DNA from: a virus
Virus record (IMG/VR): IMGVR_UViG_3300032282_001282
Location: 22,284 to 86,283 of that record
Reading direction: 5' to 3' (one strand)
Length of the DNA: 64,000 nt
The notes under the pieces were generated by a model. It saw only the letters and a list, made by a program, of their open reading frames with translations, ran no database searches and was not told the DNA's origin. Position 1 is the first letter of the stretch, and each line of letters begins with the position of its first letter. Shown here piece by piece: positions 40,959 to 56,969 of the stretch. The translations under genes were made by a program, and so were the position numbers.

Positions 40959-41927
40959 TTATTGTACGTTTTTCTTGGTTTTTTCTAATATTTTAAATGT
41001 CTTATTCTGTATTGTACGCAAATCCTCAAACGAGCCACCGGCGTTTATAACGCCCGATGTTTTGAGTCTTTCTGCGTATACAGGATTTTTCAACCCTTCC
41101 TCAACCACGAGATGTATTCTAGCCACAGTTGCTAAATCAGTACCAGCCGGCGCAAATAGTCCATACCAAATGTTCATGTCTAATTCGGGGTGCTTCTTGG
41201 ATAACGCTGGTAATTTAACAGAAGGATTTAATTCGTTGACCGTATGGCTTCCTTCGGGAGTCAGTGCGGCAATAAATTTAATTTTTCCAGCCTGCCATTG
41301 TGGCTTTAGTGTACCCAGTGAATCAATTGAAAAATCCACATTGCCGGCCATCAAATCAATCAGTGCTGGGCCGCCACCTTTGTAGTTGATAATCTGTGGT
41401 GCTGGTAATTTTTCCAATTTGGCCCAGTATGTAAACAAGTTGGCATTGTGATTGGACCAGTGTGCTATGTTGAATTTGTTGGGATTTTTGCGTACATAGT
41501 CCTTGAGTTCTTCATAGTTGTTAACAGGACTGTTTGCAGGAACAGCAAGAATAAATGTGGCAATACCCATTGGGATAATTGGAGAGAAACTGGCCGGTGT
41601 ATATTCTATATTTTCTTGTGCAGTCTTGAAAACAATATTACTGTCCAAGGTACCTTGACTGACCATGAATACTGTGTGTCCGTCTGGATTGGCCTTGGCC
41701 ACATAGTTGGCGGCAATCACAGTATCAGCACCGGGCTTGTTTACAACTGTAGCTCGCCAGCCGTGATTGTTAATAATTTCTTCAACAATACGAGCAAGTC
41801 GGTCTGTGTTTCCGCCTGGTGCAAACCCTACCACAATTTCAATTGGTTTTTTTGTTGGATCAAAATCAGCTAGAGCTGAAAAAGATAACATTGATAGTAC
41901 GGCTGTGATAAAAAGTCGTTTAAACAT
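40959..41927 (-). CDS. Bug/TctC substrate-binding protein
   Basis: Signal peptide; KPIEIVVGFAPGG.TD..AR; NKPGA; PDGHT; YKGGGPAL.DL.AG; WYGLFAPAGT. Confidence 0.9.
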   Translation of the reverse strand: MFKRLFITAVLSMLSFSALADFDPTKKPIEIVVGFAPGGNTDRLARIVEEIINNHGWRATVVNKPGADTVIAANYVAKANPDGHTVFMVSQGTLDSNIVFKTAQENIEYTPASFSPIIPMGIATFILAVPANSPVNNYEELKDYVRKNPNKFNIAHWSNHNANLFTYWAKLEKLPAPQIINYKGGGPALIDLMAGNVDFSIDSLGTLKPQWQAGKIKFIAALTPEGSHTVNELNPSVKLPALSKKHPELDMNIWYGLFAPAGTDLATVARIHLVVEEGLKNPVYAERLKTSGVINAGGSFEDLRTIQNKTFKILEKTKKNVQ

Positions 41928-41989
41928 GATTTGAATGGTCCTTATTTTTAAAAATTTCAATGATTGCGTTGTATAGTTTTTCTAGCACG

Positions 41990-43105
41990 TTATTCTCCTA
42001 GACTGTATTTCTTAGAGTATATGTCCTTGATGTTTAGTAGTGCGTGTGTACGGCCTAATGCGTTTTCGTTAAGCCAATTGAAGAATGGTTTGTCTCCGCG
42101 TAGGTTATAAAACCCTTTAACATAATTTATTGCTGTCGGGTCACCGAGTTTTAATTTTGCGGCCAACATAGGTTCACCAGTTAGGTTAGCAAAATCTTCA
42201 AAGTTGGCATCAGGATCAAATTGAGTACGGTATATACGTCCGTTGGCTGTTTTTTGATTAAAGCTGGCACCTTTGGTCAATTCAGGATGCCGACCTACTA
42301 GTCGAGACCAGGCTGTATAACTAAACGGGCTGGCATCTCTGGCAACCCAAGTTTGACTAAAATTGTCATAAACTCCTGATTTGTGTAATCGCTTCAAGGC
42401 ATTTTTAGCCATATGACTTTGTTTTAAGTTAACTAATGGATCAAGAAAAAAACATTCTACATTAGGATGTCCCATTGTTGTACGTATATTTCTGTCAGTT
42501 TGGCATGTAACCCATTGTCCATTCTCATGGAAAATTGTCGGCTTTTCTAATCCCAATGTAATACCCCAACGGTAACCGTTATGATTGCGTTCACAATGTT
42601 CTATGGTGGCATCGCTCATTGCCGACTGTCCGTATTTTAATAAATCGCCGCTGGTTTCAAAGATCCAGTTTTCGTCACGGACTACCAACTTGCGAATATT
42701 TGAATCGTATTCGTTCCACGGAGTGATTACTGTAGACTTATCGTAGCAGTTGTCTATCATCCATTGTACATGCCACTCGGGGTACGGGTCTCCAGCAATG
42801 TCTTGGCTATACTTGATAATAATTTCATCAATGTGAATGTTATTGGCTTTGAAGATGTTATACATAGTGTGGCTGTCTGTGCCACCGGACCACATAAAGA
42901 TCAGCCGCTCGTACTTGTTTCGTAAATTGCGGGCATGGATTCCCATGAGTTCATCAAAACTAGCTGTGGGTTCTTGAGTCCAATCTAGTCGGTCATTTTC
43001 TGCGTCTAAGCAGTAAAGCTCAACAGGTCGGTTTGAGGTAAAAGATTCGTATAACGCAACATACACGTTGTAAAAAATCTTACCATTGCATAGGTAATGG
43101 GTCAT
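41990..43105 (-). CDS. PP-loop family protein, paralog of 3592..4719
   Basis: LR.KY..L..MWSGGTDSH...HIDEII; G.EKP; ECFF; KQ.H. Confidence 0.7.
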   Translation of the reverse strand: MTHYLCNGKIFYNVYVALYESFTSNRPVELYCLDAENDRLDWTQEPTASFDELMGIHARNLRNKYERLIFMWSGGTDSHTMYNIFKANNIHIDEIIIKYSQDIAGDPYPEWHVQWMIDNCYDKSTVITPWNEYDSNIRKLVVRDENWIFETSGDLLKYGQSAMSDATIEHCERNHNGYRWGITLGLEKPTIFHENGQWVTCQTDRNIRTTMGHPNVECFFLDPLVNLKQSHMAKNALKRLHKSGVYDNFSQTWVARDASPFSYTAWSRLVGRHPELTKGASFNQKTANGRIYRTQFDPDANFEDFANLTGEPMLAAKLKLGDPTAINYVKGFYNLRGDKPFFNWLNENALGRTHALLNIKDIYSKKYSLGE

Positions 43106-43129: not shown

Positions 43130-43362
43130 CATAATGATAGGTTTATTCTGTTACGAGGAAAACCTATCAAAACCCTAAGTGGCTGTTAGGCCGCTAATGC
43201 GAACTGTTCGTCGTTTGCGTTTACGTTTTTTGCTTCTGCGACCGAGCTACGTCTTTCTATGCTATGGGCATAGCGACTACAGTTACCTCAATCCTAACGG
43301 GTTTCACATTCCCGTGTTGTCTGCTTGTCTACTTATCACCCTGTCGAAACCATAGCAGGCCC
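43130..43362 (-). ncRNA. ssrA: tmRNA coding piece of a circularly permuted ssrA (5' acceptor strand plus tag reading frame)
   Basis: Starts GGGCCTG...GGTTTCGAC; tag ORF 43218..43186 encodes ANDEQFALAA-stop; ends in a gataggttt...aaacctatc hairpin (43136..43168). The 3' boundary is approximate. Confidence 0.9.
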
Positions 43363-43363
43363 A

Positions 43364-43732
43364 TCATAAAGAAACTTGTTTGAGATACTGCTCACCTTCG
43401 CCGGTTACATACCAATACTCATCATCGTTGACTATGTATCCAGCATCAGCCAAACTGTCCATAGCATTGTCAAATGCTTGGGTGCGTGACTCATCTTCTA
43501 CATAGTCTAATCCTGACATGATGGCAGTATAGATTCCTTTTAGTATTAGAATTTTACCTAATCCCTTGCCTTGAAAGGTTGGCTCTAATTCTACTAAACT
43601 TCTTCCACTAACTGCATCATATTGAAATGTTCCTGCATATTGCCCATCTACACTTATTTCAACGCCAATAGTATTACTACCTTTTGTTGTTTTGAAACTT
43701 AGTTTCGGATTAGCAATTTCAGTGATACGCAT
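43364..43732 (-). CDS. GNAT-like protein encoded in the tmRNA intervening segment
   Basis: ELEPTFQGKGLGK resembles acetyl-CoA-binding motif A; SD TAAGGAAG directly after the tmRNA CCA; N-terminus MRITEI. Confidence 0.65.
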   Translation of the reverse strand: MRITEIANPKLSFKTTKGSNTIGVEISVDGQYAGTFQYDAVSGRSLVELEPTFQGKGLGKILILKGIYTAIMSGLDYVEDESRTQAFDNAMDSLADAGYIVNDDEYWYVTGEGEQYLKQVSL

Positions 43733-43744
43733 CAAACTTCCTTA

Positions 43745-43809
43745 TGGTGGACCTGGCGGGAGTCGAACCCGCGTCCAGAATGCCTTTCGGCTCACTTCAT
43801 ACAACAATA
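43745..43809 (-). ncRNA. ssrA: tmRNA acceptor piece (T-arm plus CCA) of permuted ssrA
   Basis: CTGGACGCGGGTTCGACTCCCGCCAGGTCCACCA; CAGGTCC pairs with GGGCCTG at 43362, giving G3-U70 and A73; TATAAT at 43816..43821 upstream. The 5' boundary is approximate. Confidence 0.9.
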
Positions 43810-43824
43810 ACTTACATTATATAC

Positions 43825-45330
43825 TTATTTGACTAGCGTGTCAAACGGGGTTAATTTGGATTTTTTGTAAGTTTCTATGGCCGCATACACTTCTTTGATT
43901 TTGTTACCAAATAATGTTTTATCAAAAGTTCCATTTATAACATCTTTGATATCGATTCCTAATCCAACTATTTCCGACACTTCCCACATAGCAGTTACAC
44001 CATCATTCCAGTTGTGTATAACTTTGCCAAACTTCTTTCTGTACTGATCTGTTTCTTTGTTTAACTGTTTTGCGATGGCCAATGCTGTATCTACATCCAT
44101 AAATTTGTTTTTCCAGTTTACAATGTCGATGTCTTTTTTAAATGTGCCTTTGTCTACAGTTTCTGCATCTTTTGTAGTGTAGTCCCATTTTTCATAGTTC
44201 TTCTCAAACTCACTTAATCTAGTCATTGCATTTTTACGCAACACCAATCCAAACCATTCCCATTTATCAAATACTTCAAAGTTCTGGTCGATAAACCATT
44301 GCTGGCTATCAAGTATGCTTTTTAATGATTCGCCGGGCAGTCCTACAATCATTCCTGTGTATGTATAGATGTCGCGATTCTTTTTTAGTTGTCTAACAGC
44401 GTCAAGTTGACGTTCAGTATCCATGCCCTTGCCAATGGCTTTTTTAGCCTCAGGATGGAATGATTCTATCCCAAAGGTACCGGCAATAAGTCCTGTGTCG
44501 GCCAACATTGATATTGTTTCAGGATATCTGGCCATTAAGTCTGCACGTAAGAATGCCGAGTAAGTTAGTTGAACTCCGCTTTGTGCAATAGCTTCGGCAA
44601 CGTATTCTAGTTTAACTATGTTGTCGTTAAATGTATCGTCTTGGAATGTGTAGTTAGTGATACCCCACATTTCGTAATTGCGTTTGAATTCATCGGCTAA
44701 ATTTCCTTTGTGTCGTATGTAGTCATTTTTCTTTTTACCAAGCAAAGGAAATTGGCAAAAGGTACATCTAAATATACAGCCACGACTAATTTCAACAGGC
44801 AAGAAGTTAAATTTAATTTGATCTTCGGGCAACCATTTGATTGTTAAATCAGTGTCATCATTCTTGTAAAATTCTTCAGCATTAACTGCCAGGGTTTCTC
44901 TATATGGTACCCATTGTAGGTTGTCTAATCGTTTACCCGTAATGTATTTTAAGTAATGTAATACTGCTTCTTCGGCGTAGCCCCAGATAATTCTATCTAC
45001 TAGAGCTGTATCTAATCCAGCCAGTGCAGATTCGTTACCGCCAATGAGTGTTTGTACTCCGGGATAGGTTTCTTTGACATGTTTGAATAAGGTATTAATT
45101 TTTTCAAAGTCGTACAAGAATGTAATGCTAATGCCAACAAACAAAGTATCTTTTGTGATATACTTTGCACATACTTGTTTTAATTCGTCTATAGAAAAAT
45201 GACTAAAGTAATCAACTACTTCAATGTTGAACCCATGTGGTTCCAAGAATGTCCTAATTCTAGTTGCACCGGCAGGCCTAGTTAAGGTCTTGGTTTTATC
45301 CATGCCAGTGAAGATTATTCCGTGTGTCAT
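43825..45330 (-). CDS. B12-binding-domain radical SAM enzyme (class B-like)
   Basis: N-terminal VGISITF/IGG/GYAE domain; EISRGCIFRCTFC; DDTFND; GIES; IVGLPGE. Confidence 0.85.
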   Translation of the reverse strand: MTHGIIFTGMDKTKTLTRPAGATRIRTFLEPHGFNIEVVDYFSHFSIDELKQVCAKYITKDTLFVGISITFLYDFEKINTLFKHVKETYPGVQTLIGGNESALAGLDTALVDRIIWGYAEEAVLHYLKYITGKRLDNLQWVPYRETLAVNAEEFYKNDDTDLTIKWLPEDQIKFNFLPVEISRGCIFRCTFCQFPLLGKKKNDYIRHKGNLADEFKRNYEMWGITNYTFQDDTFNDNIVKLEYVAEAIAQSGVQLTYSAFLRADLMARYPETISMLADTGLIAGTFGIESFHPEAKKAIGKGMDTERQLDAVRQLKKNRDIYTYTGMIVGLPGESLKSILDSQQWFIDQNFEVFDKWEWFGLVLRKNAMTRLSEFEKNYEKWDYTTKDAETVDKGTFKKDIDIVNWKNKFMDVDTALAIAKQLNKETDQYRKKFGKVIHNWNDGVTAMWEVSEIVGLGIDIKDVINGTFDKTLFGNKIKEVYAAIETYKKSKLTPFDTLVK

Positions 45331-46103
45331 TTGTTCTTATTAATGTAACGCTGTTTTAGTGCTTCAAAAAACTCACGATCATCATCAGTTAATTCAACTG
45401 CATCAATTTGTTCACGTTGATATCTAACAAAATTTTGTAGTGCTTCAAAGTCGCCTTCATACTTAAAGTTGTTGGTAATCTTTTTAGTATCGTAAACGTC
45501 CATGATAATATGATAACGATCTTCATCTGAGTCATTGCGAATTTGGTGCCATAGGTTAGTCCAAATAATGTATGGACGACCATCGGCTTCCATGTACAGA
45601 CGATCCCCATCACAGATGTGTACGCATTGGTCGTTAGTCCACAATGGAATATGTAGTCTAGCCATATACTCAGTTGTGTCTGCGTCTTTGTGTACTAGGC
45701 TTTTACAATGTGCTTGTAAGCAGGTAATCCTGGCACGTCTAGGATAAAAACCCAACTCCATTAAATGATCAATTATTTTTTTAATTTCGCCTACATAGGC
45801 CTGTGTGGGCTTGTCGTGTTCTAAACTGTGGGAAATATTAAAATGTTTAAAGGACTTGTATATTAGTTCTGTTGTAGGTAAAAATGATTCAAGTGACGTA
45901 CCGGCTTCTGTTTGTATTGCTTCCCAACCATCTTGCCAGTCTGCACTACGGCTTAACAAACTCCACCCGCCAAATCCGTGATACTGTGGTGTTTCAAATT
46001 CTTCGCCTTGGATTACTTGGTTGCCCAATGTAAATACACTTTCGCGAACTTCTTTGCGAAGTTTATCAATATCAAATTGAACGTCTAATTTTTCGTACCA
46101 CAT
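45327..46103 (-). CDS. Asp/Asn beta-hydroxylase-like 2OG-Fe(II) oxygenase
   Basis: RARIT.L; HKD; RLHIPL.TN; H...N.S.EDRYHII.D. Confidence 0.8.
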   Translation of the reverse strand: MWYEKLDVQFDIDKLRKEVRESVFTLGNQVIQGEEFETPQYHGFGGWSLLSRSADWQDGWEAIQTEAGTSLESFLPTTELIYKSFKHFNISHSLEHDKPTQAYVGEIKKIIDHLMELGFYPRRARITCLQAHCKSLVHKDADTTEYMARLHIPLWTNDQCVHICDGDRLYMEADGRPYIIWTNLWHQIRNDSDEDRYHIIMDVYDTKKITNNFKYEGDFEALQNFVRYQREQIDAVELTDDDREFFEALKQRYINKNK

Positions 46104-46111
46104 ATTATTCC

Positions 46112-46687
46112 TTAAATGTTATTTGTTTCTTTGAGCATTTGGTATACATCATTATATGTATACTTTTTTGTTCTGAGAGCTATAGCTTTTCTAACAGCAA
46201 ATTCTTCTACCGGGATCACGTTGTGTATTTGCGATACATCTAGTAACCAAGCCTCGCCTTCTTCGGCAATAAAACTATCTATTTCTTCTACATCATCTAA
46301 ATCGTATACGGCTTTTACATAAGCAACTTCTTGGTCTTCTTCAAGACGACTTTTAGGACGGGTAATTACATTTTCTAATTGATGATAAGTTGAATTGTCT
46401 TTGGCACGATAAAATACCGTGCGACACTTTGTAGTCTTAATGTAAAAATTAATTGTAGTTACTAAATCATTATCAACGTGCGGTAACAGTACAGAATTAA
46501 TAGTCATCAGCGTTAGATAAAAATCATCTTTATACTGTTTAGGTACCACAGAATAAATTGCGTCTATGTCCGGGCTCCAAATTTTATTATGATATACACC
46601 CTTACCGTCTAGGCCAGCAAAAGACTCTAGTCCACTGATGTTAGTGTACAAAGGTGTTTCAAATCGATTTGTTAAGCGAGCAAACAT
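46112..46687 (-). CDS. 2OG-Fe(II) oxygenase-like protein
   Basis: LPHVD; TINFY; LDVSQIHNV; RKAI; paralog of 47330..47860. Confidence 0.7.
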   Translation of the reverse strand: MFARLTNRFETPLYTNISGLESFAGLDGKGVYHNKIWSPDIDAIYSVVPKQYKDDFYLTLMTINSVLLPHVDNDLVTTINFYIKTTKCRTVFYRAKDNSTYHQLENVITRPKSRLEEDQEVAYVKAVYDLDDVEEIDSFIAEEGEAWLLDVSQIHNVIPVEEFAVRKAIALRTKKYTYNDVYQMLKETNNI

Positions 46688-47340
46688 AGCGTCTTATAAT
46701 TAAAATAGTCAGACCCAGATTCAATTATTTGTCTTAGTCTCGGAATGTCTATTTGTTCAATCTTATTAGTATAACCTATTTCGACAGAATATGCAATCAT
46801 ATCTTCGGATAGTTTTTCCAATAGCTGTGTTTGGTTATAGAACTGTGAGTATCCACGCCCTACACAAGCAAGTACATTAACTGCATCCGATTTTAATTCA
46901 AAATTGTTAACGTCTACAATCTCTACAATGTTCATTGGCTTTGCAATACCCAACGCTTCATAACATAATTCTCCCGAAGACTTAGTGTCAATTACTGGAT
47001 ATCGTTTTGTTAATTTTTTACAAACGCTGTCAAAATAATAAGGACTGCCTGGTGCTAGATACGCATACTTAGAATCTCGGGGTAGTGATTTAATAACATC
47101 AATGACCTTCTTGGCAACACTAAATCCATCGATCCTTTTGTTATTTTCTACCCAGGCATTTAATGTAATTATCTTGTGTCCACGTTCTTTAATATACCGA
47201 TAACCGTAATAGTCGGGATAAGATGCCGATGCTACAACACAAGTAATCTTTTGATCAAAGAATGTATAAAACTCTTTGGTAGCAGATTCTTGAGTAATCG
47301 GCACACCCACGACAGTAATGTCGCGAGACTTAAACCACAT
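46672..47340 (-). CDS. tetrapyrrole-methylase-fold (class III) SAM methyltransferase-like protein
   Basis: ITVVG; AYLAPGSPYYFDS (G.P motif); SS.E.CY..LGI, resembling PG.S..D....LGID. Confidence 0.5.
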   Translation of the reverse strand: MWFKSRDITVVGVPITQESATKEFYTFFDQKITCVVASASYPDYYGYRYIKERGHKIITLNAWVENNKRIDGFSVAKKVIDVIKSLPRDSKYAYLAPGSPYYFDSVCKKLTKRYPVIDTKSSGELCYEALGIAKPMNIVEIVDVNNFELKSDAVNVLACVGRGYSQFYNQTQLLEKLSEDMIAYSVEIGYTNKIEQIDIPRLRQIIESGSDYFNYKTLCLLA

Positions 47341-47860
47341 TGCCGGTCTCTTTAAGCATTTCAACAACATTGTCATAAGGATGTATAAATGTACCTAAGG
47401 TTACTGCCTTACGCAGACCGATGGTACCTTGTACGCTGTGTATTTTCTTAACGTTCAAGCACCATATTTCAAAGTCCTGTGCTACAAAACTATCTACTTC
47501 TTCAAGCTCATCTTCAAAATAAATGTGACCATCAATTTGATTTTCTATTTGCAAGGTCCTTGGATTATCTACTGTAGGTCGATAAAATACAGTTTTAGCT
47601 CCGCTGGTTTCAATATAAAAATTGATAGTAGTAATAATTTCTGTATCTGTATGTGGAGGTATTGGGCGATTGATAGTCATAACAGTTAAATGAAAATCAG
47701 ACCAATAACGTTTAGGCAATACGCTGTAGAGTTTTTCGGCGTCGGGCGACCATATCTTTTTATAGTCAATGCCTTGGTTGTCAACGCCTGTGAATGTCTT
47801 TAGCCCCTGTGTTACTGTGTACAGTGGTTTTTCAAAGGTGCTGTTAAGACGTACAAACAT
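47330..47860 (-). CDS. 2OG-Fe(II) oxygenase-like protein
   Basis: IPPHTD; TINFY; LNVKKIHSV; RKAV. Confidence 0.7.
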   Translation of the reverse strand: MFVRLNSTFEKPLYTVTQGLKTFTGVDNQGIDYKKIWSPDAEKLYSVLPKRYWSDFHLTVMTINRPIPPHTDTEIITTINFYIETSGAKTVFYRPTVDNPRTLQIENQIDGHIYFEDELEEVDSFVAQDFEIWCLNVKKIHSVQGTIGLRKAVTLGTFIHPYDNVVEMLKETGNVV

Positions 47861-48546
47861 TATTTCCACTCTTTAATTTTGCTCATGCGTCCAGCCCAGG
47901 ACTTTAGAATTACAGTATTTTCATAGTTAGGATCAACTACCTTACGTAAATCTGTGCTTAGGCTAATGCGTAGGTCCGAGGATTTGTTTTGGTCTACGCC
48001 GTGTAGTACATAGCTAGGGAAAAATATTAGTCTACCTTCTACTGGTTTAAATCTACGCTCACGCACATAGGGACTGCCACTAACAGTATTGCGATCCCAA
48101 TTGATTGCTCCTGCTGTGTCATAGCATACTAAATCGCCACAGCCTTCTTTTGCTTGGATATAGTATGTAGCCGCAATGGCAGATTCTGTGTGTCCGTGTA
48201 CTTCCAATGATTCACCGGGCTCACGCACATTAACCCAGCCCATAAAATGCTCGCACCCTTTGAGGTTAAGCAACCTAATCTCGGGTACTTCTCTAGTGAT
48301 TGTTTTAGTAACAATATCAACGATTTCTTGTTTAAGTATGTCTAAGTTAGGACGACTATAATCCCAAATACTATCACCGGGCTTACGGTCAAGGCCCAAT
48401 ACAATGTCTTTGCCTATACTGTATATTTCGTCAAGCAAGGCAGTATTGAACTCTTCATCAAATCGTGTTTGTACTTCCCATATTGGGCTTTTCCAAAATA
48501 AGTTTTGTGCGTTTTGATACCAGTGGTATCTTTCTTTATCGTCCAT
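47860..48546 (-). CDS. putative 2OG-Fe(II) oxygenase (TIGR02466-like)
   Basis: WVNV; H.H; YY; P.EG.LIFFPSY.LH.V..N.S...RISLS. Confidence 0.8.
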   Translation of the reverse strand: MDDKERYHWYQNAQNLFWKSPIWEVQTRFDEEFNTALLDEIYSIGKDIVLGLDRKPGDSIWDYSRPNLDILKQEIVDIVTKTITREVPEIRLLNLKGCEHFMGWVNVREPGESLEVHGHTESAIAATYYIQAKEGCGDLVCYDTAGAINWDRNTVSGSPYVRERRFKPVEGRLIFFPSYVLHGVDQNKSSDLRISLSTDLRKVVDPNYENTVILKSWAGRMSKIKEWK

Positions 48547-48547
48547 A

Positions 48548-49150
48548 CTATCTGTCCACTATTAAATTTAATTGTTTAAATTTGTCTACTACTGTTTCCC
48601 ATTTAGGCATATCAGGCAAGCGTGGGCCTAACCATGCTCGTACACTAATTGCCCAACGACCTTCACTACCACATTCAATGGCGTGTGGTTTGTCTGTACG
48701 ACACAATACCATTCCCGAGTTTATTTGTTTTCTATCTATTTCAACTAGCTGTCTAGTATCCCACTCGCGATAGCCGTAGTCGTTAAGGTCGGGATGATAT
48801 TCATCAACATCTTTGCCGGGATCATCATACCATGTCATGTAGGATGTTGTATTATTAAATGTCCAGTTCATTGCCCACGTTGTAGTACCAATGGAATCTA
48901 TATCCCAATGGGCTCTGTTGGATTTTAAATACGGTGCTTTGTAAAACAACATGATCAACCCTTTGAGATAAATTCCTTTATCTTCAAATTGGTCAATCCA
49001 CTCTTGTTTGAAAATTTGGTCGGCTGAATAACGCCAACTCTTTTGAACTAACGGTTCTGGGGGAAATTTAAAATCGTCAAGTAATGCGTGTTCTGAGTTA
49101 GCATTAATATCGTACCAGGAGTAATTTAATTCCCTTGTTGACTTTTCCAT
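48548..49150 (-). CDS. 2OG-Fe(II) oxygenase-like protein
   Basis: AHWD; AMNW; RTDKPHAI; RWAISVR. Confidence 0.65.
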   Translation of the reverse strand: MEKSTRELNYSWYDINANSEHALLDDFKFPPEPLVQKSWRYSADQIFKQEWIDQFEDKGIYLKGLIMLFYKAPYLKSNRAHWDIDSIGTTTWAMNWTFNNTTSYMTWYDDPGKDVDEYHPDLNDYGYREWDTRQLVEIDRKQINSGMVLCRTDKPHAIECGSEGRWAISVRAWLGPRLPDMPKWETVVDKFKQLNLIVDR

Positions 49151-49461
49151 TCATTGTATTGTTGTAATAGAGCATTTGACTCTGTATCTTTTTCAACCCA
49201 AGGTAAACCATCATCTTGTCCCTCGGATGCAGATTTAAGCAATGCAGTCTGCCCAAGCAACATACGTGCTTCAGGCGGAATAATTGCTTCAACAATATCA
49301 TGATATTCAGTCATCATTTGAAAGTATCTGGCTTTGTCTGTTTCGCTCAAGGCCATAATACGTTGATACATTTGATTGTTGAAAAAGTCGTGCAGGTGAT
49401 CTTTGTTGTAAACTACAACTTCACCGTTTTCGTTTGTAATTGTAATATTCTCTTCGCTCAT
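49126..49461 (-). CDS. hypothetical protein
   Basis: Coupled to the Cys-rich gene. Confidence 0.55.
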   Translation of the reverse strand: MSEENITITNENGEVVVYNKDHLHDFFNNQMYQRIMALSETDKARYFQMMTEYHDIVEAIIPPEARMLLGQTALLKSASEGQDDGLPWVEKDTESNALLQQYNEWKSQQGN

Positions 49462-50333
49462 GCTGTTACACCTTTAAATTTTAATGTTTCAAATAGTTGA
49501 CCAACAGCAACGATACCTCTGAATGCAACAAATACAGCTACCAATGAAATGCCTTTGATAAACCCGGCTGGCTTAGTACTAGGACCAACTAAACGTTGCC
49601 ATAGTCCAACTGCTTTACAAATAGGTATGCCAGCGGCAGTTAACATTTTACCTGTAATAGATCCTTGGTCAGTTTTGCCCATACTATAGGCCATTTCTTC
49701 TGCCCACGGTGTAGCAATATCCTTGGCCCAAGCAATAGCCCAATCTTTAAGAATTTGTTGACTACGAGATTCTGGCAACCACGGTAAGATATTAGGACCA
49801 CTGCCATCCATCCAGTCAACTACAATTTCAGCCCAAGCACGATATCCGTTGTAGATATCCGGGCGTTCTTTAATTAGTTTAGCACCAAACTCTTGATCAG
49901 CTAAGAAGATTTCAGTTGGTAGTAGTCCAAGACTGTGTAGTTTTGTACAGATAATCTTAGAGCAGTTACAATCGTGTGTAAAGCAATTTACTGTATCGCA
50001 GTTGTAAGTACAAGCACAATTACAGTTTGCCTGTAGCCAGTTTTGAGCATCGCAGTTGGCGCAATTAATCGCTGTACAATTTGCTGTGTTACAGTTACAT
50101 TGGCCGCAGTTACAATTACCGTATGCGCCGTTATTGCCGTTATTGCAATTGCCTTGGTTGTTATTTTTAAAGTATGTTAGGCCGTAGAACGAACCCATGT
50201 TTGGACTTGTAGGTCTGATATTTGACTTAATCAGTCCGTTGAGAAAGTTTAAATCTGCAGAATAGTTTGCGGCCTGTCCAATTTCTTGGTTAACGTCGCT
50301 GACTGCAATTTGTCCAGATGTTTGTAGCGTCAC
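49458..50333 (-). CDS. Asn-Cys-repeat protein with virion-like N-terminus and C-terminal KIICT domain; candidate modification substrate
   Basis: MTLQTSGQIAVSDVNQEIG N-terminus; 15 Cys in residues 63-124; KIICTKL...ADQEFG...YNGY..WA domain; hydrophobic tail. Confidence 0.7.
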   Translation of the reverse strand: MTLQTSGQIAVSDVNQEIGQAANYSADLNFLNGLIKSNIRPTSPNMGSFYGLTYFKNNNQGNCNNGNNGAYGNCNCGQCNCNTANCTAINCANCDAQNWLQANCNCACTYNCDTVNCFTHDCNCSKIICTKLHSLGLLPTEIFLADQEFGAKLIKERPDIYNGYRAWAEIVVDWMDGSGPNILPWLPESRSQQILKDWAIAWAKDIATPWAEEMAYSMGKTDQGSITGKMLTAAGIPICKAVGLWQRLVGPSTKPAGFIKGISLVAVFVAFRGIVAVGQLFETLKFKGVTA

Positions 50334-50353
50334 ACTTGCCCCTTTTCTTATAT

Positions 50354-51808
50354 TTATGCATCAGCAAGCTGTGATTTACCGTAGACTGTAACCCCGTCAA
50401 TTTCGCCTATTGTTTCGTGTACTACTTTAATTGGAATAATGCGTTTTGTTGGTTCTTCTTTGTGTTCAAAAATAGTACCAAATATGTCTTGACGATCTAT
50501 GGGCAATGTATCGCTCTTAATTAATGTAGGGATATAACCCCCAGTAACTTCAGCAATAGCTAAAGCAAACATGGCCACGTTGTCGGAGTAGGCATTGGCA
50601 CAACTGATATCCCAGAACTTTTTGTCCAGGAACATACAAGCACCTTTACATAAATGTAGCACAGGACACTCAGGGCATTCTTTACGCTTAGACCAATGTG
50701 TTACTGATGTAAGTTTAACTTCATCAAATTTATCTAGTGTACCGCCTAGGTGTGGCTCACCATTCTTAGACATTTCTAACGCACTTACGTTTTGGCAAGT
50801 TAATACATTGCCTCGCAAGTCTACAGCAATGGTATTCTCATCATCCATACCGCATTTTTGTCCTACAAATTTAGCATCAACACGGTTCAGTAAGTTCTGT
50901 GCAAAGCCACCAATCTTTTGAATTTGGCCTAGGAAACCAATCTTACCATCTGTAGTCCAGATGTCGGCAAATGCTTGACGTCTAAATTCAAAGTGATCTT
51001 GTTTAGTTATTAAGCTGTTAACAATACCTTCTTCGTCATAGGCATCGACAATACCGCCTTCGCCTAACTGTACATTTTCATCACCAGTTAGATCAACAAA
51101 CCAATCGTAAATTTCTTTGCGTGATCTGTTCTTGCTGTTAAGCATAGCATTGAAACTAAATCCTTGTTTCAATCGGGTCATCATACGATAAAACCCAAGT
51201 ATACGTTCTTTTTGTTCTGGATCATCAAAAGGATCTGGTCCTCGCACACTTTGTCCCGGACCGTCATGACTAATAGCAACAGTGAAGTTATACTGCATTA
51301 ACCAATCAATCATTTCGTCTGTTAGAATTGATCCGTTGGTAATAACACTAAACCTAGGTTTTGTTTTCCAGTGGCTAAATTTTTTATAAATTGTTTCAGC
51401 CAGTGGCTTCATTGTTTTCCAATAAACAAATGGCTCGCCGCCACAGAACTCTACCTTGAGTCCTCGCTGTTCATCGAAGTTTAAATTTTCTAGTTTTTGC
51501 ATGAAAGCATCAATGTCTTTCATGTTAGTTTCTGGTGCCCGCTCAACAAACTTTTGTGAGCAATAGTCACAAGAATAGTTACAGCTCAAACCCATTTGGA
51601 TTTTAAGATGTGTAATGTCTCGAGATTTTAACATCGGTGTGTCGATGTCAAATGATGTATATGGTGTGAATGAGTCGGTTAAATTTTTATCGGCGTTGCC
51701 AAATTCAAATACAGTACCATCGCTTGTGGTTAATGTATTAGACATATTGTCGTAGTAAAAGACAGCTTTATCCGTGGAGCTTTTTTCTCCGTGTATTTCA
51801 AAAATCAT
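50354..51808 (-). CDS. radical SAM/SPASM-domain enzyme
   Basis: CNYSCDYC; GGEP; ITNGS; ISHDGP; CG...VDLRGNVLTC; CPECPVLHLCKGAC...C. Confidence 0.9.
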   Translation of the reverse strand: MIFEIHGEKSSTDKAVFYYDNMSNTLTTSDGTVFEFGNADKNLTDSFTPYTSFDIDTPMLKSRDITHLKIQMGLSCNYSCDYCSQKFVERAPETNMKDIDAFMQKLENLNFDEQRGLKVEFCGGEPFVYWKTMKPLAETIYKKFSHWKTKPRFSVITNGSILTDEMIDWLMQYNFTVAISHDGPGQSVRGPDPFDDPEQKERILGFYRMMTRLKQGFSFNAMLNSKNRSRKEIYDWFVDLTGDENVQLGEGGIVDAYDEEGIVNSLITKQDHFEFRRQAFADIWTTDGKIGFLGQIQKIGGFAQNLLNRVDAKFVGQKCGMDDENTIAVDLRGNVLTCQNVSALEMSKNGEPHLGGTLDKFDEVKLTSVTHWSKRKECPECPVLHLCKGACMFLDKKFWDISCANAYSDNVAMFALAIAEVTGGYIPTLIKSDTLPIDRQDIFGTIFEHKEEPTKRIIPIKVVHETIGEIDGVTVYGKSQLADA

Positions 51809-55363: not shown

Positions 55364-55561
55364 TTATTTCTTTTTGCCGGCTTTCATATTAGCACACCAG
55401 TGATACATCTTACCTCGTTCTCCGCCCTGTTTGGCTTTCTTACGTAATGATGTAACACTACCACTACAACTCGCACCAGCACGTTTTACACGACCCGGGC
55501 GGCTTTTGCCTTTTACCTTACCGTCGTGGAAGTTTTCTGTAACAAACTCTTTAGCTCGCAT
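55364..55561 (-). CDS. small basic protein with capsid-targeting-like N-terminus
   Basis: MRAKEFVTE, then a K/R-rich body. Confidence 0.6.
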   Translation of the reverse strand: MRAKEFVTENFHDGKVKGKSRPGRVKRAGASCSGSVTSLRKKAKQGGERGKMYHWCANMKAGKKK

Positions 55562-55562
55562 A

Positions 55563-56969
55563 TTAGTGGAACATCAAGAAACTGTTTTCAACGTCTAGTC
55601 TATTAGCGGCACGATCCCCATGACCGGCCGGAAATATAACTACGTTCCATTTAGGTTTAGGTCCTTCGGGAATAGTCAACATCTGATCGTATGTAATAAT
55701 GGTGTCGGGATCAATCTTGTACTTAGCGGCAAGATTCTGTTTGAACTGATTCCACTCTGCTTCGCCTTTGATTTGTGTGCGACCTTTTTCATCTTTAACG
55801 TATTTGCCTTTGGCATCAGTTACAAACAAACCACGGAACATATCTTTAGGCAATGTTAGGCCTTGCTTAACAGTATTGCCAGCAGACTTGTGTATTTCAA
55901 TCTTTTTGTCTTGGCCACGTTTTGCACCAGAGCTAAAATTGATAATAAAGTTAGCAGGCTTTGAGCCAGTAGCAACATCAGCCATCTTTGTATAGGCATA
56001 AAACTTAACATCAGGGTTGGCATTGGCAACCCCGTATGCTAGATCTAAATATTCTTTAGAGAAGAAGTCACCGGCATCGTGCCAACGAACAACTAACTGG
56101 ATACCAGCTTTGTCTGTTTTACCTTTAACTTGTTTAATCTCTTGATTAACACGAGCTGTATATCCTTCTGGATCATTGACTAAGAAGTTTAATGCTTGTG
56201 CGGCACTCATTGAACTAGCAGGGAACATAACGTATCCGCCTTTACGTGCATAGCAAAACAATTGGCACTCACCTGCACCAGGACAAGTAGTAATTTCTAC
56301 AAAGTCGCCAGTTTCTTCATCGACAACAATACCGCTTAATGCTGGTAAAGTTAAATCGTATACAATTTCACCTTCTGTTTTACTTTTTTCCATCTTGGCA
56401 TTAGTACCAAGGATAGCACGTGGGCGAGTTGTAATTTGACGAGCTAGGTCATCTAAGTCCCATGCTTCGCCCGAGTCAGTAACGATAGCTTTAATGTTGC
56501 TACCGTGTATAATAGGATTGAATCTATCTTTTTTAGTTTTGGTTCCTGACTTGATACGGTCAGCATAACCTTGTAATTCATCGCGGCTCCAGTTACGTTG
56601 CGGAGCATTTAGTTTAATTGCTTCTGATAAACCTTCTAGATCTTCTGCTGGCCAGCTTTGATATGTTTTACCGTTAATATCACCAGCACGTACAACAAAC
56701 ACACCACCATTGTCATAGCCTTCGTCTTGACCAACTTCCCAACCCATTGCGGCTAGCGTTTGTTCGGCACGTGGATCTTCATCACCGTTCCACCATTGTG
56801 CGGCTAATTGATGTAGTAGTTCGTCTTCGTTGGGTTCGCGATCATCACCACCGGGTGGCGCAAATTCTTGAACATCTTCTGCGTCTTGATCTTGGATATG
56901 CACAGGCTTGACTGCAAAGCCGCCTAGTGTACGTTCTGTAATTTGTTGTTTAAATTCAAAGAATCTCAT
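55563..56969 (-). CDS. GP88-like protein with N-terminal extension
   Basis: N.KM.K; LPA; TCPGAG.C...CYA; VRWHDAGDFF; FYAYTK. Confidence 0.65.
   Translation of the reverse strand: MRFFEFKQQITERTLGGFAVKPVHIQDQDAEDVQEFAPPGGDDREPNEDELLHQLAAQWWNGDEDPRAEQTLAAMGWEVGQDEGYDNGGVFVVRAGDINGKTYQSWPAEDLEGLSEAIKLNAPQRNWSRDELQGYADRIKSGTKTKKDRFNPIIHGSNIKAIVTDSGEAWDLDDLARQITTRPRAILGTNAKMEKSKTEGEIVYDLTLPALSGIVVDEETGDFVEITTCPGAGECQLFCYARKGGYVMFPASSMSAAQALNFLVNDPEGYTARVNQEIKQVKGKTDKAGIQLVVRWHDAGDFFSKEYLDLAYGVANANPDVKFYAYTKMADVATGSKPANFIINFSSGAKRGQDKKIEIHKSAGNTVKQGLTLPKDMFRGLFVTDAKGKYVKDEKGRTQIKGEAEWNQFKQNLAAKYKIDPDTIITYDQMLTIPEGPKPKWNVVIFPAGHGDRAANRLDVENSFLMFH

Follow-up and report, generated by a model that had tools for sequence, protein, structure and literature searches.

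A large freshwater phage carries, on the minus strand of its DNA, a permuted two-piece tmRNA gene whose two pieces are separated by a complete protein-coding gene. The window analysed here, a stretch of 64,000 nt taken as a whole, leads us to conclude that this is likely a working tmRNA gene in which the spacer, closed by a stem, is used as an exchangeable gene slot. The intervening segments of permuted tmRNAs have so far been treated as short disposable spacers, whereas the one described here holds a protein gene under selection, and across related phages the spacer takes the form of a standardised, exchangeable expression slot. A first-pass annotation, made from the letters alone, had proposed that the region 43130-43821 is a permuted two-piece tmRNA with a complete protein gene as its intervening segment. 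Each of the parts it named is present on the minus strand at the position given, and the proposal as a whole is borne out by a match of 101.2 bits to a permuted-tmRNA model, by the dN/dS of the open reading frame and by the homologs of its product.

The two pieces of the tmRNA gene

Among the Rfam models for permuted tmRNA (RF04321 and RF01849-51), RF04321 aligns end to end (model positions 1-213) with 43806..43186 of the minus strand, at 101.2 bits and E = 1.5e-18 where the gathering score is 47. The beta-type model RF01850 matches only in part (43231..43139, 45 bits, model positions 214-304; gathering 84 bits), and the long insert may block its full alignment; a related Menderavirus tmRNA reaches 94.6 bits with the same model. 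The search with permuted models that the first-pass annotation had suggested thus recovers the whole unit, while ARAGORN, run on the whole window, returned no tRNA and no tmRNA, the long spacer being the likely cause. Loci of this kind are open to mis-annotation, the tmRNA being missed (as by ARAGORN) and the ORF called without its context.

A sigma-70-type promoter (43816..43844, minus strand) precedes the gene and agrees with the consensus at 12/12 positions, with TTGACA at 43844..43839 and TATAAT at 43821..43816 separated by a 17-nt spacer; promoter-like hexamers stand at an equal distance in four related loci (L005, L007, L012 and L013; alignment A1). The predicted transcription start, at about 43809, corresponds to the 5' end of the acceptor piece (43745..43808, minus strand), which is delimited by the RF04321 alignment and by pair counts in A1. 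This piece holds the 3' strand of P2 (43782..43776) and the T arm (stem 43772..43768 / 43760..43756, loop TTCGACT), both placed by the RF04321 alignment, then the 3' acceptor strand CAGGTCC (43755..43749), the discriminator A (43748) and an encoded CCA (43747..43745), and it terminates in ...GGTTCGACTCCCGCCAGGTCCACCA at 43745. The order is the permuted one, with the CCA-ending 3' half upstream of GGGCCTG (43362) on the same minus strand, and 382 nt of insert separate the encoded CCA from the G with which the coding piece opens.

The coding piece (43139..43362, minus strand), placed by the RF04321 alignment as far as 43186 together with the partial RF01850 match, opens with the 5' acceptor strand GGGCCTG (43362..43356), with a predicted RNase P site 5' of G43362, and contains the 5' strand of P2 (43343..43337), a pseudoknot region, the tag and the 3' region. 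The tag frame (43186..43218, minus strand), with GCA as its resume codon, reads GCA AAC GAC GAA CAG TTC GCA TTA GCG GCC TAA, that is, ANDEQFALAA and a stop, and nine relatives keep an AND......AA frame in which the middle residues differ. The piece has a terminal hairpin (43136..43168, minus strand; GATAGGTTT / AAACCTATC) with a loop motif, CCTCGTAACAGAA, that is conserved in A1; no T run follows the hairpin, and a search of the minus strand gave no terminator-like site. A conserved CCUCGUAACAGAA loop after the tag is a candidate for pairing with the 5' end of the acceptor piece, a pairing that could not be separated from the P2 extension of the Rfam model.

The two halves are joined by a 7-bp acceptor stem, GGGCCUG/CAGGUCC, with G3:U70 and then A73 and CCA, which are alanine identity elements, and by P2, in which CAGGGUG pairs with CAUUCUG; both helices had been recognised at the outset, and they are found in the sequence and in the Rfam alignment alike. 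In ten ORF-bearing copies, 99% of the cells of the helices that bridge the insert are paired, compared with 41-65% in slid controls. Within A1, P2 has compensatory changes in four of its seven pairs and the T stem, which is 100% paired, in one of five, and the acceptor stem is invariant in the ten copies with the exception of one unpaired cell. The tag frames are open and end in AA in 10/10 copies despite their sequence differences. Misassembly at the junctions, which would have undermined the original proposal, is ruled out because the same junctions recur in at least 13 independent IMG/VR contigs from different samples. An SmpB gene is absent from the 86-kb fragment, which says little because the record is only ~24% complete.

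The intervening segment and its protein

The intervening segment (IVS; 382 nt, 43363..43744, minus strand), which would be removed on maturation, consists of TAAGGAAG-TTTG-ATG, a 122-codon ORF, TGA and a single T (43363), after which GGGCCTG begins. Its ends form an 11-bp stem in which the 5' arm (43744..43734) pairs with the 3' arm (43377..43367); the Shine-Dalgarno sequence (SD) AAGGAAG (43743..43737) lies inside the 5' arm, and the 3' arm consists of the final sense codons, immediately ahead of the TGA. In the MFE fold of the precursor this stem is coaxial with the acceptor stem, with pair probabilities of 0.74-0.90 for the first seven pairs. Relatives with other cargo supply 59 distinct pairs of spacer ends, in which 94% of cells are paired, as against 44-63% when slid, and the stem has compensatory types of pair (at position 7, for example, AU 29, GC 14, UA 5 and CG 4). 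In most of the related loci listed, and irrespective of the cargo, a single base follows the stop codon before the spacer ends; in a minority of those listed the ORF either stops at least 12-13 nt short of that end or continues beyond it.

The ORF of the window (43364..43732, minus strand; ATG at 43732, TGA at 43366..43364) encodes 122 aa and is a real gene under purifying selection. Over 45 pairs its mean dN is 0.026, its mean dS 0.172 and its mean dN/dS 0.15, and there are 61 homologous protein clusters; a chance ORF is rejected on account of this ratio and these homologs.

The product is probably a minimal GNAT-fold protein, and a putative acyl-CoA binder, with a winged-helix-like C-terminus. 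In the searches made with its AF2 model (pLDDT 87.6), the listed Foldseek and VIA matches are almost all GNAT or MYST proteins (Z 6-8, TM ~0.5), and the N-terminal beta1-alpha1-alpha2 elements that canonical GNATs possess are missing from the model; in the ESM Atlas, the nearest clusters consist of small viral GNATs. The loop of motif A, Q/R-x-x-G-x-G/A, is present as Q54-G-K-G57-L-G59, and across 21 homologs G57, L58 and G59 do not vary, while residue 54 is one of Q, R and K. Minimal GNATs (PF14542 Acetyltransf_CG; E. coli YjdJ, 5i0c; Arabidopsis At1g77540, 1xmt) have a similar beta-sheet and motif-A helix (Z 6.8-8.0) and likewise the Q/R-x-x-G-x-G/A loop, yet the cut-offs of the family models are not reached by the cargo protein; MYST acetyltransferases resemble it in having a winged-helix-like C-terminal element after the core. 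At curated cut-offs no Pfam GNAT model matches the window protein, while sub-threshold matches to such models occur in 12-15 of the 21 homologs (best E ~1e-3) and sub-threshold matches to HTH_45 in all 21. The description of the protein as GNAT-like in the first-pass annotation is therefore upheld by fold and motif and not by the thresholds of the Pfam families. A profile search of the PDB gave weak matches, to an eS10-type winged helix (E = 0.003) and to serotonin N-acetyltransferase (E = 0.18), a tblastn search of 50,697 GenBank phage records gave no match, and no known counterpart was identified for the invariant EDESRT motif of the family. When the family was compared by profile with the GNAT carried in the slot of another locus (L206), only the motif-A stretch aligned, with a probability of 9%, and homology between the two is therefore not demonstrated. 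The locus also draws attention to a large family of mini-GNAT modules present in giant freshwater phages.

Exchange of the cargo and the proposed uses of one transcript

Comparison of spacers among related tmRNA loci, proposed together with the original reading, revealed swapped cargo ORFs: 91 related loci with the same junction hold ~40 unrelated cargo families in spacers of 62-494 nt. Thioredoxin, a DUF2061 protein and the Pfam-significant GNAT of L206 are among the cargo, and many of the families are membrane peptides of 20-40 residues. In empty alleles the spacer is a 25-30-nt hairpin, for example CCACCA-TAAGAGTATAATGTATTTTTATGAT-GGGCCTG, in which the 5' TAAG and 3' TTTATGAT ends are common to filled alleles, and the stem is kept without any ORF. 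The acceptor pieces of three ORF-bearing loci (L008, L012 and L016) are 100% identical to those of empty ones (L077, L091 and L103), and L019, which bears an ORF, shares 95% identity in the coding piece with empty L023 and L090. In two pairs of loci (L005/L006 and L015/L016), the ORFs are 99.2-99.7% identical and the tmRNA pieces just 56-77%. The genes that flank the tmRNA are unrelated from locus to locus. These sequence comparisons directly support the view that cargo can be exchanged between tmRNA genes of different phages. The earlier suggestion of a neutral insertion site for cargo genes thus holds for the slot itself, through filled and empty alleles, the diversity of cargo and the discordant divergence of ORFs and tmRNA pieces, but it does not hold for neutrality: judged by its sequence, the slot is not simply neutral, since the conserved SD and stop that it offers are paired within a stem that covaries.

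From the anatomy of this slot, stem-closed and running from SD to stop, we infer that the precursor would have two jobs, as the mRNA for the cargo protein and as the source of the tmRNA. From the single strong promoter, transcription would run through the acceptor piece, then the intervening segment and finally the coding piece; directly behind the CCA, the 5' arm of the slot would provide an SD, and the 3' arm would provide the final codons together with a TGA separated by a single base from the RNase P site. Processing of the tRNA type, with RNase P predicted to cut at G43362 and 3' trimming to stop at the CCA (43745), would then leave two tmRNA pieces held together by base pairing. Cargo would most likely move by recombination in the near-invariant flanks, that is, the acceptor-stem strands and the spacer stem, in the manner of morons or cassettes; for the slot in this phage, no encoded recombinase or nuclease was found that would explain mobility. 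In lake metatranscriptomes (Logan contigs), contigs of relatives cover the ORF at depths of 2-13, for which DNA carry-over is possible, and one such contig (X16 record 9) spans 43355-43774; parts of the tmRNA reach depths of hundreds to thousands, sums that include the tmRNAs of other organisms. Because these RNA data are assembled contigs, RNA ends, processing and strand cannot be read from them, and the coverage is not taken as evidence in favour of the model.

One may go a step further and ask whether a mechanistic link ties tmRNA maturation to translation of the spacer ORF, an addition to the explanation above that we regard as possible and put forward tentatively. While terminating at the TGA, a ribosome would sit over the 5' acceptor strand and open the spacer stem, so that maturation of the tmRNA would have to wait until translation has stopped; once excised, the stem-closed spacer would remain as a protected mini-mRNA. 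The position of the stop, one base before the spacer end in most of the loci listed and with any cargo, is consistent with such a link, as is the covarying stem, stacked on the acceptor stem, in which the SD and the final codons pair. This evidence is purely structural, however, and the minority of loci in which the ORF stops at least 12-13 nt early or runs past the spacer end speaks against the link, as do the empty alleles: since they keep the stem without an ORF, the stem may serve processing only. That the excised spacer is itself an mRNA that couples maturation to expression, as the first reading had it, is plausible from the anatomy; sequestration of the SD in the stem could make the mature excised spacer a poor template for translation. 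A more ambitious version, on which we would not bet, would make the phage tmRNA spacer a dedicated cassette system in which the helices are both recombination arms and expression signals, translation and maturation gate one another and the spacer is a mini-mRNA. Here acceptor-stem formation would be under the control of a ribosome that terminates a single base short of the RNase P site, and the excised, stem-closed spacer would be a protected mini-mRNA in which the stop beside the SD favours re-initiation.

The exchange of ORFs could also be pictured as the work of a selfish element, a homing-type mobile gene that invades empty spacers and serves its own spread and not the phage, and for which the spacer, being cut out of the RNA, is only a safe place. 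Such an element would account for an ORF that is present in some alleles and missing from others, for almost identical ORFs in divergent tmRNA genes and for the near-invariant flanks of the insertion site. It is nevertheless very unlikely: searches of the cargo by Pfam, PHROGs, PDB profile and fold revealed no nuclease, recombinase or transposase domain, the cargo domain is also embedded as one module in longer, non-mobile phage proteins, and the slot is common to ~40 cargo families that are unrelated to one another and many of which are membrane peptides of 20-40 residues, so that mobility is independent of this particular protein. That the insertion inactivated the tmRNA and left only the protein gene and its promoter functional is scarcely credible, for while the lack of an ARAGORN call and of SmpB in the fragment would suit a decayed gene, the insert sits exactly in the segment that permuted tmRNAs discard, the helices that span it stay paired through compensatory changes, the tag frames are open and AA-ending in all ten copies although their sequences differ, and the Rfam score is 101 bits.

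An exchangeable gene slot within a working tmRNA gene points to a previously undescribed route by which phages may carry and swap accessory genes. One transcript would serve as both messenger and stable-RNA precursor, and the locus offers a natural system in which to study translation versus tRNA-type processing on a single RNA.

Relation to known systems

Permuted two-piece tmRNAs occur in Caulobacter and other Alphaproteobacteria, some Betaproteobacteria and Cyanobacteria, as recorded in PMC9004378 (citing Keiler et al., 2000; Sharkady & Williams, 2004) and in PMC11915505. The phage gene is like them in its gene order, two-piece tRNA-like domain, CCA, alanine identity and tag; their spacer, however, is usually short and non-coding, whereas here it is a complete gene of 382 nt with SD and stop. 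As contents of intervening sequences, the 2025 tmRNA database paper gives only a "unique" tRNA-Ala gene and a repetitive element (PMC11915505). We found no published description of a protein-coding tmRNA spacer in the literature on two-piece tmRNAs.

Among phages, permuted tmRNAs have been described in the OM43 phage Melnitz and in pelagimyophages (PMC9004378). These and the tmRNAs of Stenotrophomonas Menderavirus (e.g. Marzo) are likewise phage-borne and permuted, often by early promoters or tRNA clusters, and over ~70 nt the acceptor pieces of Menderavirus share 83-84% identity with that of the window. Yet tmRNAs of this type are annotated at ~375 nt with short spacers, in contrast to the 382-nt coding spacer of the window.

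A protein gene within a removed part of a tmRNA gene is also seen in the group I introns of the tmRNA T loop, some of which carry LAGLIDADG homing endonuclease genes (PMC11915505). Group I introns self-splice, however, whereas the segment described here would be released by tRNA-type end processing, carries non-nuclease cargo and has its SD and stop provided by the slot. Morons, integron cassettes and the free-standing homing endonuclease genes of the T4 tRNA region are small exchangeable accessory genes that occupy a fixed site with conserved flanks. The slot is like them in holding small, individually expressed cargo whose presence varies among related genomes, and unlike them in being without an integrase, attC, a promoter and terminator of its own, or a nuclease. 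Instead, a stable-RNA gene provides its expression signals, and functional RNA helices form its flanks.

The permuted tmRNA gene and its insert

On the minus strand, a sigma-70 promoter of perfect consensus (TTGACA-17-TATAAT, 43844..43816) is followed by the 3' tRNA-like half of a tmRNA, comprising a T arm (GCGGG-TTCGACT-CCCGC), the strand CAGGTCC, the discriminator A and an encoded CCA that ends at 43745. Directly 3' of the CCA lies TAAGGAAGTTTG, and then the ATG (43732) of a cargo ORF of 122 codons, whose TGA (43366..43364) is separated by a single T from the 5' acceptor strand GGGCCTG (43362..43356); the P2 strand CAGGGTG and the pseudoknot region come next, before the tag frame GCA AAC GAC GAA CAG TTC GCA TTA GCG GCC TAA (ANDEQFALAA, 43218..43186) and a hairpin (43168..43136), the last element of the unit. 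The first-pass annotation had read this as a permuted tmRNA with a protein gene as its intervening segment, an observation that is confirmed, as all of its coordinates agree with the minus-strand sequence. The covariance-model check that it proposed came out in its favor: the Rfam model RF04321 (tmRNA_permuted) aligns end-to-end over 43806..43186 with 101.2 bits (gathering score 47; E = 1.5e-18) and treats the entire ORF as inserted sequence, with the CCA on one side and the 5' acceptor strand on the other. A further match, to the betaproteobacterial model RF01850, takes in the tag and 3' region (45 bits, 43231..43139); ARAGORN, the other program suggested, made no call in the window.

The same protein is encoded at fifteen IMG/VR loci, most of them with a permuted tmRNA spanning the ORF as judged with Rfam. 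In an alignment of ten ORF-bearing copies, 99% of the 300 cells in the helices that bridge the insert are standard pairs, compared with 41–65% for slid partners. Compensatory changes are seen in four of seven pairs of P2, a helix joining the two tmRNA pieces, and in one of five T-stem pairs, while the acceptor stem, including G3:U70, is invariant apart from a single unpaired cell. An open AND......AA tag frame with varying middle residues is present in each of the ten copies, the variants including ANDEQFALAA, ANDEKFLMAA, ANDSQFRVAA, ANDESFALAA and ANDSVYSLAA. The pattern is in line with a functional tmRNA, maintained rather than broken, with co-evolution of its two halves across the ORF.

The cargo protein and its modular relatives

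The cargo ORF is a genuine gene. A collection of 5.8 billion proteins contains 61 clusters homologous to it (75–100% identity for forms of ~122 aa, 56–70% for longer ones), and its mean dN is 0.026 against a mean dS of 0.172, a ratio of 0.15 (Nei-Gojobori, 45 pairs). An AlphaFold2 model made with 21 homologs (pLDDT 87.6, pTM 0.82) has four antiparallel strands, two helices, a beta-hairpin and a C-terminal helix. Nearly all Foldseek matches listed are GNAT or MYST acetyltransferases (Esa1, E = 8.6e-4, TM ~0.5), and a Foldseek-independent fold search returned mostly GNATs (Tip60, Z 8.0; the minimal GNATs YjdJ, Z 7.1, and At1g77540, Z 6.8) as well as a resemblance of residues 56–122 to winged-helix repressors. 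The motif-A loop is Q54-G-K-G57-L-G59, in which G57, L58 and G59 are invariant, and in the ESM Atlas the closest clusters consist of small viral GNATs. In Pfam, the window protein does not reach the GNAT cut-off and has a single weak match, to HTH_45; GNAT models match 12–15 of the 21 homologs, in each case below threshold. The cargo is described on these grounds as a putative minimal protein of GNAT fold whose tail is winged-helix-like, in keeping with the GNAT-like protein that the first-pass annotation had named. It is predicted that it probably binds acyl-CoA.

Homologs of 187–1396 aa lie outside tmRNA genes and are modular phage proteins with an MRAxEF-type N-terminus, VAE(G/N)(F)ADG-type linkers and often a widespread C-terminal module, KGKSRPGRVKRAGAS...MYHWCANMK; several contain further mini-GNAT modules. 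The very long phage ORFs (545–1396 aa; L017 1036..3921 (+), L272 389..4576, L270 and L260) are made up of small domains between (Q)GVAEG / VAENFADG linkers, one domain being the cargo homolog. Since these linkers recur regularly and contain Glu, the ORFs may encode polyproteins that a protease processes, perhaps proteins from inside the virion. A scan for P0047, with patterns that include the C-terminal module, matched IMG/VR contigs at more than 590 positions, and among these matches the module often tails modular proteins with mini-GNAT domains. A 65-aa ORF in the window (55364..55561, minus strand) consists of an MRAKEFVTE leader, an NFHDG linker and the C-terminal module KGKSRPGRVKRAGAS...MYHWCANMKAGKKK, and nothing else. 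Six ORFs of the 86-kb record start M[RK]x.[ED][FILV] (window 55364..55561 and 55563..56969, both minus strand, 43732, 23238 and 10019, and upstream of the window), and several unrelated spacer cargo proteins of other phages, together with the long modular homologs, begin alike (MRINE.., MRIKEL.., MRAxEF..). These proteins may have an N-terminal leader in common, which might serve for packaging or targeting or might set the context for initiation.

The spacer as a slot for exchangeable cargo

A search for CAGGTCCACCATAAGGA found at least 91 loci with a resolvable spacer, 62–494 nt long among the matches listed. All listed spacers start with TAAGGA, as the search pattern demands; a variant of TTTATGAT, not demanded by the pattern, closes nearly all of them, and in most of the listed loci the stop codon falls one base short of the spacer end. 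Swapped cargo ORFs in related ssrA spacers, which the earlier reading had suggested looking for, are abundant: single-linkage clustering of the matches listed gives at least 40 cargo families, many of them hydrophobic peptides of 20–40 residues, with Pfam matches to thioredoxin (75 bits), a DUF2061 membrane protein and one significant GNAT. Across 59 distinct end pairs, spacer positions 1–11 pair with positions -5 to -15 in 94% of cells (44–63% when slid), with compensatory types at position 7 (AU 29, GC 14, UA 5, CG 4). The minimum free energy structure of the window precursor has this spacer stem coaxial with the acceptor stem, and in the isolated window spacer its first seven pairs have probabilities of 0.74–0.90. 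As the stem pairs both spacer ends, the SD is paired with the last sense codons beside the stop.

Empty alleles, scanned for as two acceptor strands no more than 30 nt apart, were found in ~35 phage permuted tmRNAs; their spacers are mostly ~17–30 nt (for example, TAAGAGTATAATGTATTTTTATGAT) and have the 5' TAAG and 3' TTTATGAT in common with the ORF-bearing spacer. The acceptor pieces of the filled loci L008, L012 and L016 are 100% identical to those of the empty loci L077, L091 and L103, and the coding piece of filled L019 is 95% identical to those of empty L023 and L090. Between loci, nucleotide identity is 89–100% for ORFs, 73–100% for acceptor pieces and 52–96% for coding pieces; the respective values are 99.2%, 77% and 61% for L005 and L006, and 99.7%, 74% and 56% for L015 and L016. 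No relatedness of flanking genes between loci was seen at the DNA or protein level. Comparison of the loci shows cargo exchange between phages: the empty alleles, discordant divergence and diverse cargo bear out the earlier proposal of an insertion site for cargo genes, and at this comparative level the cargo slot is demonstrated.

In a related tmRNA on a contig from lake RNA libraries (X17 record 15, matching window 43336..43370 and 43740..43786), a 40-nt hairpin spacer, GCACTACA...TGTAGTGC, replaces the ORF, so that empty-type relatives share lake RNA data sets with ORF-bearing ones. Seven loci (L005, L015, L027, L044, L087, L099 and L100) have a non-canonical T loop in the T arm before CAGGTCCACCA, with GGCAGTG, GGCGGAA or GGCGGCA replacing TTCGAnT and the stem held by compensatory changes; it is found in filled and empty alleles alike.

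Proposed working, setting and known systems

The first-pass interpretation of the spacer as a protein gene is supported, and its other proposal, a coupling of tmRNA maturation to that gene, is plausible. We infer spacer processing and ORF translation as follows. One precursor would be made from the strong promoter, and the cargo would be translated while the SD is free, either with the 3' arm still untranscribed or with ribosomes holding the stem open. Once the spacer and acceptor stems have formed, cleavage by RNase P would fall 5' of G43362, and 3' trimming would proceed to the CCA at 43745. This would release both pieces of the tmRNA together with a spacer RNA closed by its stem, by analogy with Caulobacter-type tmRNAs, for which two-piece processing is established, as cited in passages of PMC9004378 and PMC11915505. 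Since many cargo types, tiny peptides among them, use the slot and none of those examined contains a nuclease gene, the simplest mechanism of exchange would be homologous recombination in the near-invariant flanks.

Upstream of the promoter, a co-oriented gene run adjoins directly (43825..51808, minus strand), which includes, among others, several 2OG-Fe(II) oxygenase-like genes. It also has a radical SAM-like gene of the B12-binding kind (43825..45330), whose stop codon falls between the -35 and -10 hexamers of the tmRNA promoter. Just downstream lies a 371-aa ORF (41990..43105, minus strand) of a multi-copy family, with three or four paralogs in the same record, including upstream of the window, and homologs in L005 (379..1539) and L006 (tblastx). 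No terminator separates the tmRNA hairpin from this ORF, so read-through is possible. The source record of 86,283 bp is ~24% complete (CheckV), which would imply a genome of several hundred kb; the tmRNA junction motif is also carried by contigs of 320–364 kb, and run metadata for the closest carriers point to freshwater or lake samples. A 333-aa ORF (40959..41960, minus strand) with a signal-peptide-like N-terminus presumably resembles, as read by eye, a Bug/TctC-type periplasmic solute-binding protein, a family expanded in Betaproteobacteria. A betaproteobacterial host is hinted at by this ORF, the ANDEQFALAA tag and the beta-type tmRNA match in combination.

Both bacteria and aquatic phages are known to have two-piece tmRNAs (PMC9004378). 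We found no description of a protein-coding tmRNA spacer in the full-text literature within the searchable collection. For the intervening sequence of permuted genes, the 2025 tmRNA database paper mentions just a tRNA-Ala gene that it calls unique, plus a repetitive element, and it reports protein genes only in T-loop group I introns (PMC11915505). The genes in those introns encode homing endonucleases, whereas in the window a GNAT-like gene occupies the spacer of a permuted gene.
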